From NCBI GenBank assembly GCA_963721455.1, contig CAVRJG010000033.1, forward strand, positions 1 to 64,000: a stretch of DNA of 64,000 nt, written 5' to 3'. Position numbers and translations under genes: made by a program. Positions within the stretch are counted from its first letter, which is position 1. Each line of letters begins with the position of its first letter. Source of the DNA: an uncultured Methanosarcinaceae archaeon. GTDB lineage: Archaea; Halobacteriota; Methanosarcinia; Methanosarcinales; Methanosarcinaceae. Positions 1 through 22,060 of this stretch are shown here, piece by piece. A model generated the notes under the pieces. The model saw only the letters and a list, made by a program, of their open reading frames with translations. It was not told the DNA's origin and did no database searches.

Positions 1-393
1 CGGGGCGGCTTCTGATAGCCAAGGGACCACAGAGCGCGGTAATCGAGGATTGGGTAGGGCCTCTTATCACAGAAATGGAGGATGACGGAGGCGGTGGGCC
101 ACTCGACACCTGCGAGGGAACGAAGGATGTACATCTTGGCCCGGTCGTCGTCGGTGGCTAAGGCTATCGCTGTCGCCTCGCGGACTCGCGAAGCGAGGTT
201 GGTGGCACAGCGGGGCTGTGATCGAGGCGTCTTCCAGCGGCAAAGGCGGAGGAACTCGCTTCGTGTCAGATACCCGCGAGCCTGCACCGTAGAGGCGACT
301 GTCCGGGTGATCGAATCCTCCCCGGGGTAGGAATACCGGGCGGACCAGTGCGTGATCTCAGACGGTGGGAATCTCAGTCTGAACAAGACTCAC
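1..393 (-). CDS. Cassette gene, HhH/DNA-glycosylase-like hypothetical protein (runs off window; frameshift near 5' end)
   Basis: Manual minus-strand translation ...RGYLTRSEFLRLCRWKTPRS...LRSLAGVEWPTASVILHFCDKRPYPILDYRALWSLG; LxGVxxxTAS and PILD resemble the HhH-GPD motif. Not in the ORF track. Confidence 0.6.
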
Positions 394-867
394 CCTCGCT
401 GGCGCCTAACGAACTAGCGGTTAAGCTGCCGGCGCGAAAGTGCACCAGGCGAGCCGTCTGGTCAATGACCTGGTCATGGAGAGTGCCAGGCGCTCATCGC
501 TATGCCCGGTGGGAGCACCGGCCAGCTTCAAGCGCCGGTTAGGCGCCACCACGTTTGGCACGAGGGCCGTGCAGGCGACCTGATTGTCAGTGCTGTCAGC
601 TCGACCTCAACTTCGGCCCCCGGCGCAGCAGAGTTTGGCGCGGCCCGAGTGCGGTGGACCGTGGATCCCGGTGCAGGGAAAGCCGCCTCCCGTGAAGCGA
701 CGATCTTGCTCTTTCACCAACGGGAAGCCCTTCGCTGTTCTGGCGCGGGTGCGCGCCTAACGAATAGGCTTAAGCAGCGGCGCGGCCGCCAACTGCCAGG
801 GCCATGTGATGGACGGCGGGCCGCGCCGTCTGCTTCGAGCCGTAGTTAGCCAGCGAGGGGTCCAAGC

Positions 868-1485
868 TCACTCCTTCCAGAACAGCGTCGCGAAGTCCTG
901 CTTGTGCTCCTTGGACGATCCGAGGGCGTCAATGTCAACCGCGTAGTTCGCTGCTGCCAGCAGGCGCTCGTTGATGAAGCTCTTGCTGCCGTCCTTGGAC
1001 TCGAATGCGAAGTACGCCGCGAGCACGCGAACTCCCTGCTTGTTCAGCGCTCGAACCAACGGAACGAAGTCGCCGTCGCCGGTGACTAGAACAGCCACAT
1101 CGATCATCTGGCCCAAACCGACCTGCAGGGCGTCGACGGCGAGAGCAACGTCTACGCCTTTCTCGCCGTGCTTCTGCGACATTGGCAGATACTTGGGTTC
1201 GACGCCGGCGTGCATCAAGTCGTGGTGCCGGTTGCGATCGCGCTTCAGCTGATCGGCAGTCGCGTCCTTGGACGTGAAGAGACCTTGGTGCCATGCGGCG
1301 TAGACGACCTTGTAGCTAGCAAACCCCTGCTCTCGCAACCCGATGTACTTCTCTAGGAAGCGATGTAATTCGGGGAAGCGAAGCCAGCCCAGCTGCCGCT
1401 CGTGGTAGTAGTAGTTCTGTGCGTACGAGAAGAACGATCCGTCGTAGAAGACGCCCAACCTGCAGATCGCTCTGTGCTCCCTCAT
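868..1485 (-). CDS. NYN domain (LabA/DUF88, PIN-fold) protein, cassette
   Basis: FYDGSF, EKGVDVALAVD, LVTGDGDFVPLV motifs. Confidence 0.9.
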   Translation of the reverse strand: MREHRAICRLGVFYDGSFFSYAQNYYYHERQLGWLRFPELHRFLEKYIGLREQGFASYKVVYAAWHQGLFTSKDATADQLKRDRNRHHDLMHAGVEPKYLPMSQKHGEKGVDVALAVDALQVGLGQMIDVAVLVTGDGDFVPLVRALNKQGVRVLAAYFAFESKDGSKSFINERLLAAANYAVDIDALGSSKEHKQDFATLFWKE

Positions 1486-1733
1486 GCCGGTTCCCCTCCA
1501 GTTCTGGCTAACGCGCTGCGCTCTGAGGCCTCGCCGTTCTCTCGCTGGCTAACGGATCTGCGCTTAAGCTGCCGGCGCGAAAGTGCACCAGGCGAGCCGT
1601 TTGGTCAATGACCTGGTCATGGAGCTTCCCAGCCACTCATATCTACCGCCCGGCGGCGCGCCGGTCGGCTTCAAGCGCGGGTTAGGCGGCAGCACGAGCG
1701 AGAAAGCGACCTCTTCGGCGCCCGGTGCGCCAA

Positions 1734-2541
1734 TCACCAGCAACAATACAAGTAGTCCCGAAGGAATCGGGTCACCACATTGTCGGAGGGCAGGCCAGAG
1801 GTTAGGTACGAGAACAACTGGTCACGATGGTGCTCACGCTCGGGATCGTCGTCCAGTGGGATGCTGAGGAAATACGCGATGTTAGAGAGAAGCCAGGTTG
1901 CCTCATCGCTGAGAAAGACGCGCCCGGTGCTGTCGGTGATGCCGGTGACGCGCGCGAGCCCGTCCATCTTGGCCGCAAGCGCGCATACAACAGCCCGTGT
2001 GGCCTCTTTGACATCCCGAGTTGTAACTAGCGATTCGAGGATTCCGAGCGCGTGGACCTTTGTGAGCGTCGGGGTATCAACTCGGCGTAGCAAGGCAATA
2101 GCCGGCCCGGGAGGGAGAGCTAAGGCGTGGTAGAGCAGGGCTGCTGCTTGTACATGGGTACTTGAGAAGGGCCCTCCGCGCCTCACCGCGCATCACGTCG
2201 ACGAGGGCCACCGCCGCCAACTGGCGGTCCCCTTCTGTGAGTAGATAGGCGCTAACCCCTTCGAGCGGAAACCGCGTCGTGTCAATCTCGTGAATTGGCC
2301 AGAATGCTTGGGTGGAGTCCCAGTCGTGCACAACGTCGGAAAGGTATGGAAGAAAGACAGGAAGCCAGAGGCGCTCGATTGCGAGCTTGGGGTCGGCCAC
2401 CAGCCACGCTGGTGGCGTGGTGGCGTCCGCCCGGAGCAAGGCACGGCAGCTCTTCTGCGCCACGAGGGTCCGTGGAGAGGCCGCTGGGAGCAGGATCACC
2501 GCACCTGCCAAGAAGAGCAGTAGGGATCTAGCCGCGCGCAT
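1734..2541 (-). pseudogene. Cassette gene, secreted hypothetical protein split by frameshift
   Basis: Overlapping ORFs 2077-2541 (signal peptide) and 1734-2186 fill one cassette. Confidence 0.5.
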
Positions 2542-2560
2542 GGATCTGGAGTTGCCGCCT

Positions 2561-2871
2561 TGTATATCGCTTCTTCCCTAAAGTGCAAGCAGATTGCGGT
2601 GGGCGATAGCCCGTGTTGCCTCGGGTCCGCGGAACCGTCCGTTAGCCAGGGCGTCGCCCACCGTCAGGACTCGTCGGAAGCCCGAACAGTTGGTCGGGGC
2701 CGAGAGCCCGCATGTGGCAAGGTCGGGTCGCGACGAGGCCGTTCTCCGAGGAGGGGGCGATGAGTGGCGAGCCGGTGTTCGTGGGGCTGGACGTGGCCAA
2801 AGCGACGCTCGACGTGGCGCGGCGGCCGACGGGTGAGGCCTGGCAGGTCGCCAACGACGAGTCAGGGATCT
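2561..2871 (+). mobile_element. Truncated IS110-family element inserted at the CT of an attC core
   Basis: Removing 2561-2871 restores GTTGCCGCCT|AACGGATTGCG, the expected cassette-end/attC junction; CT on both flanks; 5' non-coding region followed by a transposase N-terminus. Confidence 0.85.
2597..2740 (+). ncRNA. Putative IS110 bridge RNA (target-binding and donor-binding loops)
   Basis: Two consecutive stems with large internal loops: 2597-2606/2654-2663 and 2670-2676/2731-2737; loop segments match the insertion site and the element end. Confidence 0.75.
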
Positions 2872-2873
2872 AA
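2760..2873 (+). pseudogene. IS110 (DEDD) transposase, first 37 aa only
   Basis: GAGGAGG RBS then MSGEPVFVGLDVAKATLDVARRPTGEAWQVANDESGI*; GxDVxK motif; stop codon supplied by the attC TAA. Confidence 0.85.
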
Positions 2874-3047
2874 CGGATTGCGCTTAAGCTGCCGGCGCGA
2901 AAGTGCACCAGGCGAACCGTATGGTCAATGACCTGGTCATGGAGCCTCCAAGGCGCTCATCTCTACGCCCGGCGGGAGCGCCGGCCAGCTTCAAGCGCGG
3001 GTTAGGCGGCGCCTTCTTCACCACCTCGAACATGTTACTGTTCCTGT

Positions 3048-3158
3048 GTGTGCGGGCAGTCCGGTTTGCAGCCCGTAGGCCGCTGCGTGTGGGTTCGATT
3101 CCCATGGAGTTCCGTGGGCCGCGGCACGGGCCCCGGGTTCAAATCCCGGCCGCACACC
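3048..3158 (+). ncRNA. tRNA-like RNA with a nested second T-arm, inside a cassette
   Basis: 8-bp GTGTGCGG/CCGCACAC stem, D-like arm GCAG-TCCGGT-TTGC, stem GCCCGT/ACGGGC, T-arm CCGGG-TTCAAAT-CCCGG, inner TGGG-TTCGATT-CCCA; upstream TGtTACTGT. Confidence 0.65.
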
Positions 3159-3167
3159 TTCGTTCCG

Positions 3168-3461
3168 TCACGAGGGGTCAATGGGACCGCCGTACGAGGG
3201 AAACACCCTCACCATGCCGGGCAAGCGTTCCAGCCACTTGGCAGCCGCATCGACGATCGCCTTCTCCGCGTCCCAGTCGAACCGTACCACTCCAGGGACC
3301 TCGCCATCAGCGGGGGGGAACAGCATCAGGTCGTGGTAGGCGATGCCCAGCGACTGGAACTCTCGAGAGAACTCGCGCGGGTCGTGCCCAGCTGCCTTGA
3401 GGCGGAAGCCCACCTGAGGCCGAATCTCGTGTTCGTCGCGCGGGTCGGAGTCGCGATCCAC
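3168..3461 (-). CDS. Cassette hypothetical protein (97 aa)
   Basis: ORF starts right at the cassette 5' end; convergent with the tRNA-like element. Confidence 0.6.
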   Translation of the reverse strand: MDRDSDPRDEHEIRPQVGFRLKAAGHDPREFSREFQSLGIAYHDLMLFPPADGEVPGVVRFDWDAEKAIVDAAAKWLERLPGMVRVFPSYGGPIDPS

Positions 3462-3654
3462 TGGCGCCGCCTAACGACTCTGCGCTTAAGCTGCCGGCGC
3501 GAAAGTGCACCTGGCGAACCGTCTGGTCAATGACCTGGTCTTGGAGAGCACCAGGCGCTCATCTCTATGCCCGGCGGGAGCGCCGGCCAGCTTCAAGCGC
3601 CGGTTAGACAGCGCGGGAGCCATGCTGATCAGACTGATAACTGTCTGCTGGCGG

Positions 3655-4080
3655 CTATTTGCCGATACCGAACGCCGCGCGGCCATGCCGGGTTAGTAGC
3701 AGAGCCAAGAGCAAGAGCAGGAAAGTCTGGACCACAACCGCGCCGCGGATCGCCGACCGGTCGCCGCTGAGAATCCACCGGTGACGGATGATCGCCTCAA
3801 GGGGATTCAGGACGGTGACGGCAAGGGCCGCATACCAGCCCAACGGGTGTTGGAGCCAGGCTCCAGCGGCCATGTGAACACCTAATCCAGCTTGGAAGAT
3901 CGCGTTGATACGGTGAATCCGGCTTAGGCGGCGGAGTCCGGTGTCCAGTTCCTTCGGCAGCAGAATGAGCATGATGATGAAGCTGCCGCTGACGGCGATG
4001 CCGACGACAAAGACCGTCCAGCGCGTGACTGCTTGTGTGACTTGAGGAGTTAGCACACCGAGTATCGATAGGGGGTTCAT
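3655..4080 (-). CDS. Cassette membrane protein
   Basis: Hydrophobic ORF from MNPLSILG fills the cassette. Confidence 0.7.
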   Translation of the reverse strand: MNPLSILGVLTPQVTQAVTRWTVFVVGIAVSGSFIIMLILLPKELDTGLRRLSRIHRINAIFQAGLGVHMAAGAWLQHPLGWYAALAVTVLNPLEAIIRHRWILSGDRSAIRGAVVVQTFLLLLLALLLTRHGRAAFGIGK

Positions 4081-4261
4081 TCTCTGCGAACGTGCGCGCT
4101 GTCTAACGGACTTGCGGTTCTGCTGCGGGCGCACTCCTCACCAGCAGCAAGGAACTCTGATTCATGCCTAATCTTGCCAGGCGCTCGTATCTACCGCCAG
4201 CCACCGCGCCCGCCAGCAGCAAGCGCCGGTTAGACAGAGCGCGACCGCGCGGCATCCCGCC

Positions 4262-4519
4262 CTAGTACCCTCGCCACTCGCGCCACGCCTGTTCCTTGCG
4301 CACATCCTCGCCGGCTCCGGCTTCGCTCTGCCAGCGGCGTTCCCACGCGGCGCGTTTGCGCCAGACGATCAGCAGCCCGACGGGCCCGAGGACCAGGCCC
4401 CAGAGGAAACCTCGGCCGGCATGATTGTCGTGGCTCAGGAGGCCGGCGCTCACGAGAGCGCTGATGCCCCAGGCGGGAACGAGGCCGTACAGCATTGCGG
4501 CTGGAAGAGAGGATGGCAC
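4262..4519 (-). CDS. Cassette small membrane protein
   Basis: GFLWGLVLGPVGLLIV motif; fills the cassette. Confidence 0.7.
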   Translation of the reverse strand: MPSSLPAAMLYGLVPAWGISALVSAGLLSHDNHAGRGFLWGLVLGPVGLLIVWRKRAAWERRWQSEAGAGEDVRKEQAWREWRGY

Positions 4520-4678
4520 GGATTCATGCCTTACATGGACCGCTCTGTCTAACGACTCTGCGCTTAAGCTGCCGGCCCCAACTTGCCAGCAGCAACGTCA
4601 GGTGAACGTACCTTCGTACTCGCCACGCGGCCAACCTCATTCCTTCGCACGTACGGGCCGGGCGGCTTCAAGCGCCGG

Positions 4679-5017
4679 TTAGGTGGCGGCTTTGGATGGC
4701 AAGCCTAGCAGGCGCAGCGCGTGATCACGCACCTCGGCGCACTTCGTGATGTGCCAGAGCGCGATCGCCACCGCCCGGCGGTGGCGGGCCAACCGATCCG
4801 TGATGCCCTGATGCGCTTCCAGCGTCTTGAGATACTCCGCGATATGCACCTCGGTCGCATCAGCCTCAGCCATGCCCCGGATGGTGGCCACGTACTGCAT
4901 GAGGAGTGGATCCGGCGCCTTGGCGTCGAGCTCGAGATACGACCCCAACACGCGGGAGAGCGTCCGTTCAGGCGGTTCACCGCGATAAACCCAGTTGCTG
5001 GCGTTTGGCGTGATCAT
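4679..5017 (-). CDS. Cassette hypothetical protein
   Basis: ORF stops in the attC core; start estimated at MITPNAS. Confidence 0.6.
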   Translation of the reverse strand: MITPNASNWVYRGEPPERTLSRVLGSYLELDAKAPDPLLMQYVATIRGMAEADATEVHIAEYLKTLEAHQGITDRLARHRRAVAIALWHITKCAEVRDHALRLLGLPSKAAT

Positions 5018-5247
5018 CGGCTGCCAGTATCCATCACTTGTCCGGGGACCGGACTCTGCCCCGCTCTGATCTATCCCGCTCCCGCCGCCACCTAACGGAC
5101 TCTGCGCTTCAGCTGCCGGCGCACACCTCACCAGCAGCAAGGAATTCTGATTCCTGCTCAATCTCGCCACGCGCTCGTATCTACCGCCAGCCATCGCGCC
5201 CGTCAGCAGCAAGCGCGGGTTAGGTGCCACACACCTCGACGACCTGG

Positions 5248-5751
5248 CTAAGGCACGTTGCCGCGCAATGCTCCGGCGGTGGCTCGGGTGTTGGCTTCGA
5301 TGTCTGTCAACACCGCGATGGATTCAGCTGCGGCCCAGGTGAGAAGTGTCCAGAAGGTTGCAGCGGTCACGCAAACAGCACCTTGCGCCGGCTGTTTGGC
5401 CCTATAGAGGATTGCGGCGAGCACAAAGCCAGCAATCAGTATCATGACTGCAGTGACCTTCACCAGGACTACTATGCTGGCGAGCGCCGGATACCGGCGA
5501 TTGCTCTTGCCGAGAACGATGTCGCTCGATGCTGGCTCGTAACCATCGCCGGGCTTCTTCACCGTAGCGCTGGGGGCAACACTCGACCGCCGATCACGGT
5601 TCGCGCGTTCATTGAGCAAGATCTGCCAGAGCGCGGGGTCGAGTCCTTGAGGTCCTTCAGCGATGAGTGCGGCGAGACGAGAGTCTGGCATGTAGCGCGC
5701 CTCCCACTCAGCGCGCCAACGTGCGTCAGATGTTATTGGGCGGGGCTCCAT
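5248..5751 (-). CDS. Cassette membrane protein
   Basis: GGAGGAG RBS; C-terminal TM helices followed by DIEANTR. Confidence 0.75.
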   Translation of the reverse strand: MEPRPITSDARWRAEWEARYMPDSRLAALIAEGPQGLDPALWQILLNERANRDRRSSVAPSATVKKPGDGYEPASSDIVLGKSNRRYPALASIVVLVKVTAVMILIAGFVLAAILYRAKQPAQGAVCVTAATFWTLLTWAAAESIAVLTDIEANTRATAGALRGNVP

Positions 5752-5973
5752 TGCTCCTCCGACGTAAGCGACGTTCGGCGGGCCGCGACGTGTGGCACCT
5801 AACGGATTGCGCTTAAGCTGCCGGCGCGAAAGTGCACCAGGCGCACCGTCTGGTCAATGATCTGGTCATGGAGACGACCAGCCACTCATATCTACCGCCC
5901 GGCGGCGCGCCGGTCAGCTTCAAGCGCCGGTTAGGCGTCACCTTGATTGTGCGAACCGCTATCGGCTGGCCGC

Positions 5974-6597
5974 CTACCCAAGCCCGATCAGCTCGGCGAC
6001 GAGGTTGTTCAGTAGATGGAGCGCGACCGGGAGGGCGATTCCACCAGAAAGGGCGCGCAACGTGCCGAGAACAACGCCAAGCCAGAGCATCGGCGGAATC
6101 GCACCTGGTCCAAGCACTAGCCAGTGTACAAGGGCAAACGCTGCTGAGGTTAGCGCGATCGCGGCGACAGAATGCCGATCGCGGCCAACCAGGTCGAACA
6201 GGAGGCCGCGAAAGGCGACTTCCTCGATGACGGGCGTGAATACCGCTACAGCAAGGAGCACACGGAGGTCGAAGCTCGGAAGCACGTGATCGGTGAGGGC
6301 GTGCACCTCGCCGTCGGGCCAAGCCCACATGGCAACGACCGCGATGAGCCAGCGTCCCGCGACCACGGCTCCGTAGCCAAGGGCGAGGAGCGTGATCCAC
6401 CGTCGCCAGGTCAGAGCCCAACCGAAAGCGGCGGAGCCAGTTGCGAGGCCGGCTGCTATCGCGACCAGAGCCAACACGGCGGAGAGAATGAGCGCTAGCC
6501 ATCCGGATGGTCGGGCCGCAATCAGCGAACCGTAGGCCGCGCCGATGAGGGCGAGGGCCGCAAGCTGGCACTTCACTCTCCCCGTAGCTGGGGTCAC
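5974..6597 (-). CDS. CPBP/CAAX (Abi) intramembrane metalloprotease, cassette
   Basis: PVIEEVAFRG, FALVH, HLLNN motifs. Confidence 0.9.
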   Translation of the reverse strand: MTPATGRVKCQLAALALIGAAYGSLIAARPSGWLALILSAVLALVAIAAGLATGSAAFGWALTWRRWITLLALGYGAVVAGRWLIAVVAMWAWPDGEVHALTDHVLPSFDLRVLLAVAVFTPVIEEVAFRGLLFDLVGRDRHSVAAIALTSAAFALVHWLVLGPGAIPPMLWLGVVLGTLRALSGGIALPVALHLLNNLVAELIGLG

Positions 6598-6828
6598 GTG
6601 CAGTGGATCATGGATGGCATGGGCTTGTCGGGGCCGACTACTCTCGTGACGCCTAACGGACTCTGCGCTTAAGCTGCCGGCCCTAACTCGCCAGCAGCAA
6701 CGCAGAGTGAACGTACCCAGGAATTCACCACGCGGCGCAAAGACCTCTTCCTTAGTGAACGTACAGGGCCGGCCAGCTTCAAGCGCCGGTTAGGCGCACG
6801 ATGGCGAGCCAGTGAGCTACCGGCTCGC

Positions 6829-7250
6829 TCAAAGCGTTAGGGTCACGGCAACCGATCCGGGAACGGCGCACCCGTCTAGCAACGCGGGTGCGAACGTCCA
6901 CAGCCGCAGGGTCTCGATGAACTGCTCGAGGTAGCGGTGAGCGGATGGGACCCCGTGATCACCGTCGCTGCGAGGTCTGGCTGCCCCTTCTCGTTGACTC
7001 GGAAGCGCACCACCAGGGTCGCGGCCGTCGAGATACTGAGGAGCGCATCCGGGGGCAAGCGTGTGTACTTTGGAGCCGGCGGGAACGACCCTCATCGAGT
7101 CGGCGGTCATTACCGCGCGCCAGATGCACGGAGTCGCATTCGGGCCCGGAGCGAGTGGGTCCGTCCGGCGCGCGAGTGGTCACGGGCGCTCGGCCGGTGA
7201 CGCGCGCGGCACACGCAGCGCGAAAGTGACGCAGCAAATGCGAGCCATGT
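6829..7250 (-). pseudogene. Frameshifted cassette gene, TonB-C-terminal-like
   Basis: Fragments VVRFRVNEKGQPD and LRLWTFAPALLDGCAV in different frames. Confidence 0.45.
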
Positions 7251-7419
7251 CTGGTCAATGACCTGTCGTGCGCCTAACGGACTTGCGCTTAAGCTGCCGG
7301 TCCTAGCTCGCCAGCAGCAACGCAGCAATGAACGTACCCAGGAATTCACCACGCGGCCAAACACTCCTTCCTTCGTGAACGTAAAGGGCCGGGCAGCTTC
7401 AAGCGCGGGTTAGGCCGCA

Positions 7420-8175
7420 TCAGTGCCGCCGCTCCCGTTGCGCTATCGTCAGCGCCACCTCAACGGACTCAAGCATCCTGGGGTGGTCGAAGAAGGGTAT
7501 GGTGAGCGCGACGCTGCCATCTGCCGAAAGAGCGATGATGGCTGGCACCACAGTCCGGGACTCCTGGTCGGGATGCTGCGCGCTAACCCAAGGATCGATG
7601 AACACATCCCTCCAGCCATCGGCGAGAGCTATCCGCACGCCCGCCGAGACTGCGGTGAGATTCCGCGACGCCTCACTGGCGACCGTATCGAGGGAGACAA
7701 GATAGAGCACGGCGGTGCGGGCACGTGCAAGGGCCTGGATGGTGTCGATCGCGGCGAGCAACGCCGGGCATGATGGACAGTCATCGGACCATAGCGCGAG
7801 GAGCGTCGGGTGCCCGAGCAGGGAAGCGCGGGTAGGGGCGTGCCGTCCAGCAGGCGAAACGGAAGGGCGCGATTGGAAGGCCCACCTGGGGCAGGCTGCG
7901 GAGGCGCGAGGCGCAGTCGCGCCCGCGAACTCCGCGCCCGGTGCGAGCGTGAGGGGTTCCTGGCCGGTGAAGGGCTCGGGCATCGGAGTCTCATGGGAAT
8001 CGCGGAACAAACGGAGCCTGAGGCGGACCGTAATCACCCGGGCTGTTGTGAGGTTCTTGACACTCGGCTGAATGATGCGGCTAGCTGTGCGGCGCAGGTC
8101 AATCGAAATGCGGGATTCTTCCGCTCGGTGGATAGCTCGGTATGTGAAATACGTGTACCAAACAACCGCGATCAA
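7420..8175 (-). pseudogene. Fused/frameshifted cassette remnants; C-terminal TlpA/thioredoxin-like domain
   Basis: LWSDDCPSC CxxC motif; unrelated N-terminal half; adjacent attC is only a half site. Confidence 0.5.
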
Positions 8176-20794: not shown

Positions 20795-20974
20795 CTAACG
20801 ACTCTGCGCTTAAGCTGCCGGCCCTAGCTCGCCAGCCGCAACGCAGTGTGAACGTAGCGAGGAACTCACCAGGCGGCCAACCTCTCTTCCTTTCGAACGT
20901 ACGGGCCGGCCAGCTTCAAGCGCCGGTTAGGCGGCGTCCTTGATCAGGTGGCTTGGACGGCCACGACCAGCGCG
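20795..20974. repeat. Exact 180-bp duplicate of 15092-15271 (attC plus 3' end of the Clp-N cassette)
   Basis: Identical by eye, offset 5703 bp. Confidence 0.9.
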
Positions 20975-21112
20975 CGCCGTCGGGATCATCCTTCGACGCC
21001 GGACTCGGGCTGAACTTCTGATGTTCTTCAGTCCTCGCCGAGTAGCTCACGCGAACGGTCCGATTGGTCCCCCACCCGCAGACGATTCGCGATGGTCGAG
21101 CGAGAGGATCGC

Positions 21113-21525
21113 CTACTCCCGCAGCCCCACGGCTTCGAGGGCCTCGTGCGGATCGCTATAGGCCCGCTGCGACAAGCCCTCCGGAGTCCGGGTCAGCACG
21201 TTTCCGGTCCGAGTGTCGAGGGGCACTCCGCTTGCCCTGGCCCTTCCGGTCGCGCGGATGACGGCGACTACTTGGTTGTCGCTGACCACGCGGAAGTCCA
21301 CCACTTCCTGATGCCAGTCCTCCCAAACCGAGTCCACCTCCCTCGCCCACTTCCGCAAGCCATCGATGCCTCGGTAGGACCCCGCCCCTTCGGCAGCGGC
21401 AAGTACAAGTTGAACTCCACCTCGGGGCCGACAAGTTCCGCGACCGCGTCGAATTCCCGCGCATTCAATGCGGCCAGAAGGGCCTCGAAGCCCTCGCGCG
21501 TGAACTCCACGTTCTCCTGCGACAT
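21113..21525 (-). pseudogene. SnoaL/NTF2-like 'MSQENVE' family gene, frameshifted
   Basis: Starts MSQENVE and ends EALEAVGLRE across two frames. Confidence 0.8.
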
Positions 21526-22060
21526 CGCCCGCCCAGTATCCCGCCGCCGCTGCGAGGCAGGCAAGGGGCTGCGCTCCACTGGCCTGGTGTCTGCCGGGGG
21601 TCGAAGCCTTAACCCACGACTGGGGGTTCCGTAGTTCGCCTGGGAACTAGGGGGTAGTCCTTCGGATGGCTGCGAGCCTGCTCAGCATCATGCTCTCCGT
21701 CTATGAGATGGCTCAACTGGCTCAAGTACAGATGAGATAGCCAGCCGGAGGGGAGGCGCCCAGGGCGCAGCTGCCCTACGCGATCAGACCCGTCTTGAAG
21801 TCGGTCACGTGAGCAAAAAGGAAAGCAAGGTTACTTATCCAGAAATTAGTCCGCTTGAGCGAGTTGAAAAGTGGTTTTACTTGTCCATAAATTAGTCCTC
21901 TCGAGCGAAGCGAGAAGGACCCCGTGCTGTTGCGATTACATCGCAACTCCCAGAAAATCTCCGATTTCCTGTGATCCCGAAGCGGAACTCGGGAGGCGCA
22001 ATGCGGGAGGGGGAGGCGCAATGCGGGAGTCTCGACTAGGAGTGCTACAACAATAAAAGT

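Follow-up and report, generated by a model that had tools for sequence, protein, structure and literature searches.

Two lineages of selfish elements have been known at the attC sites of integron cassettes. To the first belong the IS1111-attC insertion sequences (IS), among them ISPa21, ISPst6, ISKpn4 and ISPa25, reportedly described by Tetu and Holmes in 2008 and by Post and Hall in 2009. They are met mostly in clinical class 1 or Pseudomonas integrons and hosts. These elements use a short RNA (seekRNA) with segments matching both target strands (Siddiquee et al. 2024, PMC11187229), and RNA-guided targeting of attC is therefore already published for the IS1111 group. The second lineage is represented by the group IIC-attC introns, which also home to attC and lie antisense to the array (PMC3001079). 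Bridge RNA-guided recombination is described for IS621 and ISCro4 (Durrant et al. 2024, PMC11208160; Hiraizumi et al. 2024, PMC11208158). Here we analyse a stretch of 64,000 nucleotides (contig CAVRJG010000033.1, positions 1 to 64,000, assembly GCA_963721455.1 of an uncultured Methanosarcinaceae archaeon), called "the window" throughout, in which an attC site is interrupted at 2561-2871 by 311 bp of foreign sequence. This insert is very probably the 5' stump of a compact IS110-group element whose bridge RNA is aimed at the core of the attC R' box.

The attC core is split at CT/AAC (the slash marks the insertion point), with CT on both flanks. The left junction reads ...GTTGCCGC-CT (CT at 2559-2560), followed by the insert start TGTATATCG; the insert ends in ..CAGGGAT-CT, and the right flank after the junction CT is AACGGATTGCGCTTAAGC. 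Beyond 2871, the sequence AACGGATTGCGCTTAAGCTGCCGG.. is the start of one of the ~145-bp repeats of the array. The insert is composed of a leader (the first 199 nt) and 37 codons of an IS110-group element of ~1157 bp; the left end and leader are complete, and the break at an internal CT is fused to the AAC of attC. The stop of the 37-codon open reading frame (ORF), TAA at 2871-2873, is thus made of the core T and the AA of attC. On the sense (minus) strand of the array, positions 2546-2560 are the first bases of the cassette with the ORF running from 2541 to 2077. The features are the following, R1 being the covariance model and L005 the closest full-length locus, both described below:

2546 to 2560, plus strand: left half of the interrupted attC core with its cassette-specific flank ("left target"), read from the sequence and ending in the core CT 2559-2560
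2561 to 2871, plus strand: IS110-group stump, 311 bp, 98.7% identical to L005:241-551 over all 311 nt
2596 to 2741, plus strand: bridge RNA core, match to R1 with 167.1 bits
about 2597 to 2663, plus strand: predicted target-binding stem-loop, from R1
about 2667 to 2740, plus strand: predicted donor-binding stem-loop, from R1
2613 to 2621, plus strand: left target guide GTGTTGCCT, leader alignment columns 53-61, supported by guide/flank covariation
2637 to 2645, plus strand: right target guide GTCCGTTAG, columns 77-85, the reverse complement of CT+AACGGAC
2686 to 2692, plus strand: left donor guide ACAGTTG, columns 126-132, the same as the last 7 nt before the right core CT
2717 to 2721, plus strand: right donor guide GCAAG, columns 157-161, invariant in the leader alignment
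2760 to 2870, plus strand: first 37 codons of the recombinase, with only the first D of DEDD, from the alignment to the IS621 and ISCro4 chains
2869 to 3009, plus strand: remainder of the interrupted attC (core CT, invariant AAC, spacer, both L arms and the far R box GTTAGGC), found by nhmmer with the window-attC profile, 105.1 bits
401 to 20934, cassette genes on the minus strand: cassette array with 30 attC copies by the window-attC profile, no intI found in the assembly

An initial annotation, made from the letters of the window, had proposed this insert at CT/AAC with CT on both flanks, and the sequence reads as it claimed. The four guide segments that it placed in the leader keep their coordinates and covary with the target and donor flanks, and its assignment of an RNA programmed against the attC core around CT to the IS110 group, not to the IS1111 group, agrees with the full-length relatives.

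These relatives were reached through the protein. A search with the enclosing 53-aa ORF yielded 53 longer proteins, mostly of 319 aa and with the domains PF01548 and PF02371. The N-terminus of one of them, P0003 (319 aa), is 100% identical to the 37 residues of the window, which bears out their first description as IS110 transposase. P0003 matches PF01548 at 2.3e-24, PF02371 at 1.3e-18 and the family NF033542 ("IS110 family RNA-guided transposase") with 216.9 bits against a cut-off of 140, and the chains of solved structures matched are those of ISCro4 (4.7e-37) and IS621 (6.4e-36). In an alignment of 19 proteins, the residues D11, E55, D97, D100 and S235 are invariant and aligned to the DEDD and S residues of IS621. 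Taken alone, the ORF 2760-2870 gives no PF01548 match in Pfam, only PF02983 at E 0.048, because the peptide is too short.

With the 19-protein alignment, we collected the best 80 of 128 confirmed genome stretches and the best 80 of 459 metagenome stretches. In ten genome loci, L005 (98.7%) and nine others, the alignment begins at the first base of the insert. A leader profile located the complete left end in 86 loci, all of which begin with TGTAT directly after ..CT, and the right end ..ACAGTTG-CT was found in 85 of the 86, with flanking sequence after each, when one mismatch to ACAGTTG was allowed. The length of the element, counting one CT, is 1139-1157 bp, with the exception of the shorter L148 (1112 bp). 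The left end takes ~199 nt, and the non-coding right end beyond the ORF takes 0 nt: the last codon is TGC, its C being the core C, and the stop TAA consists of the core T and the first two flank bases. The longest exact terminal inverted repeats of 85 elements, when the first and last 40 nt are compared, have 3-7 nt, most commonly 5 (TGTAT/ATACA, adjoining the donor), and 18 elements reach 7 nt. The closest full-length relatives are in bins labelled mostly as Gemmatimonadota, with one labelled as Alphaproteobacteria (L005) and one as Binatia. A search with P0003 of 401 genomes of the window's own phylum gave 0 matches at E <= 1e-60, an empty result that carries no weight.

Several loci show unusual arrangements of these ends. 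In L086:1-300, a full copy begins directly where the 3' end of a second recombinase gene stops (..ACGGTTG-CT-TGTATG..). The result is a natural tandem or circle-type junction of right and left ends, one base off the usual right end. A 61-nt left-end fragment stands directly before the full copy in L089:742-803 and L090:617-678, and it stops at the DNA encoding the left guide, that is, at a self-made left half-target; these two loci have a common left flank and different right flanks. A 12-nt left-end fragment precedes the full copy in L009:760-771 and also in L144. These oddities (L086, L089/L090, L009/L144) may have arisen when elements inserted into resident copies and the copies or their ends later recombined with one another.

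Compared with the bridge RNA systems, the clade resembles IS621 and ISCro4 in the DEDD RuvC-like and Tnp domains, in the aligned catalytic D, E, D, D and S residues and in the CT core. As in IS621, the RNA lies in the left end upstream of the gene and has two stem-loops with internal loops, its guides are sense copies on the left and reverse complements on the right, and the right donor guide is short, covering the core plus 2 nt (PMC11208160). The donor of IS621 is ACAGTAT-CT-TGTAT in the plasmid record, and that of this clade is ACAGTTG-CT-TGTAT. Unlike IS621, to which the protein is ~34% identical, the clade targets the attC core and not the natural target of IS621, and it lacks both the gene's own stop and the ~100-nt right end ..ACAGTAT-CT that IS621 possesses. 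The closest named relative that we found is ISEc32, an IS110-like element of E. coli plasmids with 47% protein identity and the same ACAGUUG donor guide; in the record examined, it is not in attC, and IS1 follows the copy.

With the IS1111-attC elements, the clade shares membership in the DEDD family and the use of one fixed attC position in one orientation, both being antisense to the array. It differs in that the seekRNA lies downstream in that group, where long (7-17 bp) subterminal inverted repeats are also present; neither occurs here. Moreover, IS1111-attC elements are reported to sit near the attC 5' end, antisense (PMC3001079), whereas this clade splits R' at the 3' end; the IS1111-attC positions were taken from PMC3001079, PMC11187229 and PMC11616780. 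The hosts differ as well, the relatives of the window copy being mostly in Gemmatimonadota metagenome bins. The resemblance to the group IIC-attC introns is that of a selfish lineage homing to attC antisense to the array (PMC3001079); the introns are retroelements with a ribozyme and a reverse transcriptase and have no relation to this clade in sequence or mechanism. Judged from sequence, the assignment to the IS110 group and not to the IS1111 group is supported by the domains, the catalytic residues, the upstream RNA, the ends and the named relatives.

The exact target follows from the array itself. A profile built from 23 of the window's own repeats (window-attC profile) found 30 copies, all on the plus strand, over 21 kb between 401 and 20934, and the copy at 2869-3009 begins at the core CT. 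The repeats carry ..CTAAC as their left box, GTTAGGC as their right box and paired arms in between; since these boxes enclose paired arms, the repeats are attC sites. The motif CTAACGGAC, noted at the outset as the complement of the right guide GTCCGTTAG and frequent in the array, occurs 12 times in the window, 11 of them on the plus strand, and the left flanks quoted with it, TTGCCGCCT, GTGACGCCT and GTGCAGCCT, are genuine attC flanks of this array. Among ten long minus-strand ORFs between the attC sites, four have Pfam matches (NYN, Rce1-like, Clp_N and DUF4349), and none of ten plus-strand ORFs of the array matches Pfam; therefore, the cassette genes lie on the minus strand. One attC folded as DNA has z -2.68, and the arm facing AAC carries two single-base bulges. 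The AAC triplet of the recombinogenic bottom strand lies in R', the extrahelical bases of that strand are on the arm opposite the triplet, and the integrase cuts between A and C of this triplet (PMC5027507). The same geometry in the plus-strand fold shows that the window's plus strand is the attC bottom strand, an orientation read in this window only and from a single folded attC.

On this reading of the sequence, the element splits R' as RYYY/AAC, 2 nt from the AA/C integrase cut, and is antisense to the cassette genes. It is formally the first item inside the cassette whose ORF runs from 2541 to 2077. The initial annotation had put it at the end of a cassette starting at 1681, which must be corrected: the cassette genes are on the minus strand, and the element splits R' at a cassette start. 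After insertion, the R' box retains CTAAC and loses its two outer positions. The target thus has two unequal halves, the conserved one (AAC and spacer) belonging to attC and the variable one being the first bases of the next cassette.

The same site is used by most of the relatives. The 86 related loci represent 82 distinct insertion events, and CT/AAC is found in 78 of the 80 with a readable right flank, the other two having CT/TAC. A flank was called attC-like if the window-attC profile matched directly after the element or if a far R box (GT[TC][AG][GA].. within 170 nt, at least 7/10 complementary to the split box) was present. By this automatic test, 58 of 71 assessable events are attC-like, and 61 of 71 by reading; in 11 events the flanks are too short. 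The profile matches in relatives begin at profile position 8, which is the core. The sites of full-length homologues, which the initial annotation had named as the place to look for a refutation, are therefore mostly attC. Further afield, L018, L019, L020, L021, L022, L024 and L027 (60-70% protein identity), from Gemmatimonadales and Longimicrobiales bins, are also at ..CT/AAC.. and have right guides ..GTTAG; the R-box test did not show attC-likeness for the flanks of L018-L024 and L027. The association with the AAC box may thus be older than the main clade. Relatives of ~50-60% identity (Nitrospira, Blastocatellia, gammaproteobacterial and other bins) occupy other repeats.

The guides follow these targets. 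The left target guide (columns 53-61) reproduces in sense orientation the 7 nt preceding CT, with CT itself, and from its sequence would pair with the target's bottom strand; the right target guide (columns 77-85) is the reverse complement of CT and the next 7 nt and would likewise pair with the plus strand of attC. When each left guide is compared with its own flank, 376 of 532 non-core positions match, against 318.8 +/- 5.9 in shuffles; for the right guide, the figures are 471 of 560 and 431.5 +/- 4.0. In neither case did any of 10000 shuffles reach the observed matches, so the guide-target covariation on which the first proposal depended is present. Individual changes are concordant: guides ending in ..GTCT go with flanks ending in ..TCT in 5 of 5 events, and a core-adjacent C in the guide goes with C in the target in 68 of 71. 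Among the right guides, the variant GTTCGTTAG occurs with AACGA.., GTTAGTTAG with AACTA.. or AACAA.., and GCACGTTAG with AACGTGC at 9/9 positions. In L007, both guides are changed, and the site is unlike attC.

In loop 2, ACAGTTG, first proposed as the donor guide, is identical to the right end ...ACAGTTG-CT of the relatives, and CAAG is the reverse complement of CT+TG, that is, of the core and the first 2 nt of the left end. In relatives of ~50-70% identity, the donor guide and the right end change together, to ACAGGTG, ACAGCTG and ACAGTCG (L018/L019, L054 and L030). The two positions after the ACAGTTG guide vary and do not read CT. The suggestion that a G/U-rich left guide tolerates different flanks by wobble pairing holds in part: it fits the lineage of the window and L005, to which alone such a guide is common, and TTGCCGCCT, from the left target at 2546-2560, would form 6 Watson-Crick and 2 wobble pairs of 9 with the window guide. 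It is not a trait of the family, because other lineages carry other guides (GAGCCGC, GCGCTGC, GAGTGGC).

The leader RNA has a conserved structure. RNAalifold on ten leaders gives two stem-loops with an internal loop in each, as first proposed, and we described them by a covariance model (R1) of 37 named pairs with the loop positions left unpaired. In 91 of 100 sources, which include relatives down to ~45% protein identity, R1 has a single match, located upstream of the gene and in the same strand as it; the RNA region of the window, with 167.1 bits, falls within the 137-174 bits of full-length copies. Over 90 distinct sequences, 91.8% of cells pair, and compensatory change is seen in 29 of the 37 pairs. 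None of 500 shuffles reaches the observed values, and pairing falls to 33.7-49.4% when the structure is slid by 1-3 columns. With filters off, R1 also has matches in the left ends of two named elements, ISEc32 (E 4e-4) and IS621 (E 0.029, 16 bits), in each case immediately before the gene, and aligns ACAGUAU and GCAAGG of IS621 opposite ACAGUUG and GCAAGG of this clade. The match in IS621 ties the leader RNA to an RNA with experimentally shown function (PMC11208160).

These data suggest how the intact element would work. It would comprise a left end of ~199 nt encoding the bridge RNA and then the gene for a 319-aa DEDD/Tnp recombinase reaching to the last base. The guides of loop 1 would pair with the target flanks around CT and those of loop 2 with the element's own ends. 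By analogy with IS621, the complex of recombinase and RNA would bring together the joined ends of the excised circle, ..ACAGTTG-CT-TGTAT.., and the target ..RY-CT/AAC.., and the strands would be exchanged at CT. The ORF of the integrated recombinase would be closed by TAA from the core T and the invariant AA of attC. The sequences show how the element is built, where it inserts, that its guides covary with the flanks and its paired bases with each other, and that its left end is homologous to those of IS621 and ISEc32; that the RNA is expressed and pairs, the chemistry, and how the deletion arose, we infer.

The copy in the window lost most of its gene. After ..ATCT, L005 runs on as the ORF CCGAGCTC.., and the window runs into the AAC of attC; therefore, a deletion extended from an internal CT exactly to the core CT of the right end. 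A search of the assembly gave no second copy of the element as DNA, RNA or protein. In DNA searches with the 311 bp, its own genome contained only the insert itself, 60 relatives gave one 21-nt chance match, and plasmids in distant mode gave no match. The only other IS110-like gene of the assembly is 29% identical and has two in-frame TGA in its DEDD_Tnp_IS110 (PF01548) region. With no recombinase in cis or elsewhere in the assembly, the window copy is an inert fossil.

Near-identical copies of full length exist in the environment, as was seen when contigs of four metagenome runs were compared with window positions 2300-3200. Contigs of X2 and X4 match 2592-2871 and 2613-2871 (3 differences) and then continue as an L005-like full-length ORF; a further contig of X4 has ..ACAGTTG-CT before attC, which is the junction of right end and attC. 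One contig of X1 carries a second stump, in which 2807 abuts 2870; here too, the missing part lies between an internal CT and the right core CT. The contig has a depth of 4.4, extends 27 nt past the joint and aligns with 2557-2807, and the stump lies behind a different cassette of 444 nt. A deletion directed by the guides was considered and dropped, since the breakpoints ..GGGAT-CT-CCGAG.. (window) and ..GCGACG-CT-CGACG.. (X1) match, by eye, no guide beyond CT. We suppose that the deletion may have occurred in two steps, first a nested insertion at the internal CT, and afterwards an excision that starts at the left end of the inner copy and reaches the right end of the outer one; this route leans on the report that donor-arm recognition suffices for excision (bioRxiv 10.64898/2026.08.31.748434).

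The array itself stands apart from its surroundings. It lies in a block of 64% G+C; the content is 62-66% from 1 to ~21.8 kb, 34-50% elsewhere in the window and 42.5% in the assembly as a whole. In the 163-kb contig, this block is at the start, and the remainder is far lower. Across the assembly, 14 of 751 5-kb windows exceed 57% G+C, 12 of them at the starts of four contigs and two inside a fifth, C19, and attC profile matches occur only on the contig of the window. The high-G+C block may have been either acquired horizontally, in islands, or joined chimerically. The integron integrase model TIGR02249 (intI) reaches at best 33.4 bits in the assembly against a cut-off of 265; beyond the last attC, 20935-21800 has no recognisable integrase, and the plus-strand ORF 21092-21634 there has no Pfam match. 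Since the contig begins inside the array, the integrase end may be unassembled; alternatively, this could be a cluster of attC sites that has no integrase. Near 21.8 kb, the switch in G+C adjoins a short direct repeat at ~21990-22030. In the cassette adjoining the interrupted attC, 3090-3104 and 3132-3149 form two tRNA T-arm-like hairpins, which are weak tmRNA matches (E 0.12 and 0.015) and in which ARAGORN finds no tRNA. The right flank of L163 also ends in a tRNA-like 3' part.

Several observations weigh against an attC-directed bridge RNA in this stump. Thirteen of the 71 assessable events fail the automatic attC test. Reading rescues three of them: L092, which is the same event as L110, a locus that passes, and L089 and L091, which have plain L arms and a GTTGGGC box. 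The flanks of L007, L090, L095, L130 and L163 are unlike attC even after reading, and those of L012 (which contains N), L014, L094, L124 and L156 have an attC-like start without the far box. Position 1 of the left guide, furthest from the core, matches the target weakly and position 2 in part; the tolerance of cassette-specific sequence seems to come from the weak constraint on these two positions. The site occupied in the window would form 14 of 18 Watson-Crick pairs with the stump's guides, and other sites of the array up to 16; across the array, the range is 10-16, with many sites about equal. As to the RNA, the alignment used for counting pairs was fitted to R1, and the shuffle controls ignore relatedness. 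The window leader folded as a single sequence has -72.9 kcal/mol and z -1.12, and 25 of 200 shuffles fold as well, so the structure is supported by covariation and not by this fold. Rfam, searched with window positions 1-8000 at E up to 1, gives two tmRNA-like T-arm fragments and no bridge-RNA family, and the name "bridge RNA" accordingly rests on our own model. No RNA sequencing run is listed as containing 2300-3200, and a scan for sigma-70 promoters gave none at the window's left end and none at the right-left junction of L086. A hexamer pair, TTGCTT ... TAAAGT, had been read by eye as a promoter and was dropped as below the scan threshold. At most 0.33 of the sampled words of 2300-3200 occur in any one public run, and none of these runs therefore confirms the window's own junction independently. 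Finally, assigning the array to this host is uncertain, since it forms a block of 62-66% G+C at the end of a contig, in an assembly with 42.5%.

These points have to be set against what the other explanations would require. It is conceivable that the leader is an ordinary 5' untranslated region or promoter and that the recombinase protein alone reads attC, for example as a folded hairpin, the guide matches being by-products of repeated insertion beside similar sequence; a structured and conserved target would allow such read-out by protein or structure, and the unremarkable single-sequence fold and the missing RNA runs are in keeping with it. We regard this as very improbable, as the guides change with the flanks at variable positions, the donor guide follows the right end, and the RNA fold persists in the relatives of ~50-70% identity, which have different guides and are inserted in other repeats that are not attC. 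Besides, the same architecture is validated for IS621 (PMC11208160), whose left end is detected by R1. There is hardly any likelihood that the element is a member of the known IS1111-attC group (a relative of ISPa21, ISPst6 or ISKpn4) in a new host. It does have the target class and the protein superfamily of that group, and the antisense orientation reported for it (PMC3001079); however, its RNA is upstream in 91 of 100 sources, its ORF ends at the last base with nothing downstream, its terminal inverted repeats have only 3-7 nt, its named relatives are IS110-like (ISEc32 47%, IS621 34%), and it is inserted in the R' box at the attC 3' end and not near the 5' end.

Two further explanations concern the truncated copy. 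Repeats and IS copies often break or misjoin assemblies, this part of the contig is compositionally foreign and at a contig end, and no public run contains the whole stretch, all of which would suit a false join of the element's 5' part to attC. Such an artefact is nevertheless very improbable in our estimate: the two sides of the join have only 2 nt (CT) in common, much less than the word length of any assembler, the X1 contig of an unrelated run shows a like stump behind a different cassette (in one contig, over 27 nt), and the right-hand attC is otherwise complete. The stump could also have been retained because its bridge RNA still acts, either in trans with an incoming recombinase or as a decoy or regulator. 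The RNA region is whole, its score lies within the full-length range, and the IS621 bridge RNA works in trans (PMC11208160). We consider such retention doubtful in the extreme, given that the assembly has no recombinase of the clade (the other match is 29% identical with two TGA stops), that the copy is single and that no expression is seen; being 98.7% identical to L005, the stump is young, and its intactness needs no selection. We therefore prefer the 5' stump of an IS110-group element with an attC-directed bridge RNA.

The missing stop codon of these elements deserves separate comment, and no recombinase borrowing its stop codon from the target was found in the literature searched. In 66 of 68 distinct leaders, the frame that would prolong the recombinase ORF across joined ends meets no stop before a TGA that overlaps the ATG, and the other two frames stop after ~18-25 nt; the count covers the first 215 nt of 68 distinct left ends, equivalent to 2563-2762 of the window. 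The right-left junction of L086 is a natural instance of the arrangement in which read-through would occur. One can speculate that the C-terminus of a recombinase without its own stop reports the state of the element, a circle or tandem adding ~66 residues and so acting as a switch between insertion and residence, and that an element, lying just inside the cassette boundary and 2 nt from the integrase cut, is carried along when cassettes are moved by the integron integrase; this reading we think unlikely to be right. The open frame could be a matter of inherited chance in GC-rich, related sequences.

The described clade leaves the known mechanism unchanged and adds to attC a third, independent selfish lineage, which comes from the IS110 (bridge RNA) group after the earlier IS1111-attC elements and group IIC-attC introns. 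No IS110-group clade aimed at attC was found in the literature searched, a search that did not extend to supplements, where the target tables of Durrant et al. may list such elements. The relatives were found mostly in environmental, Gemmatimonadota-type cassette arrays. At ~1.15 kb, and with nothing non-coding at the 3' end, they rank with the most compact natural bridge systems that this analysis covered. More than 80 insertions, in which one target half is fixed and the other differs with each cassette, form a natural dataset from which the mismatch tolerance of the natural left guide is directly readable. For the integron, the elements probably affect cassette mobility, because their insertion point is 2 nt from the integrase cut.

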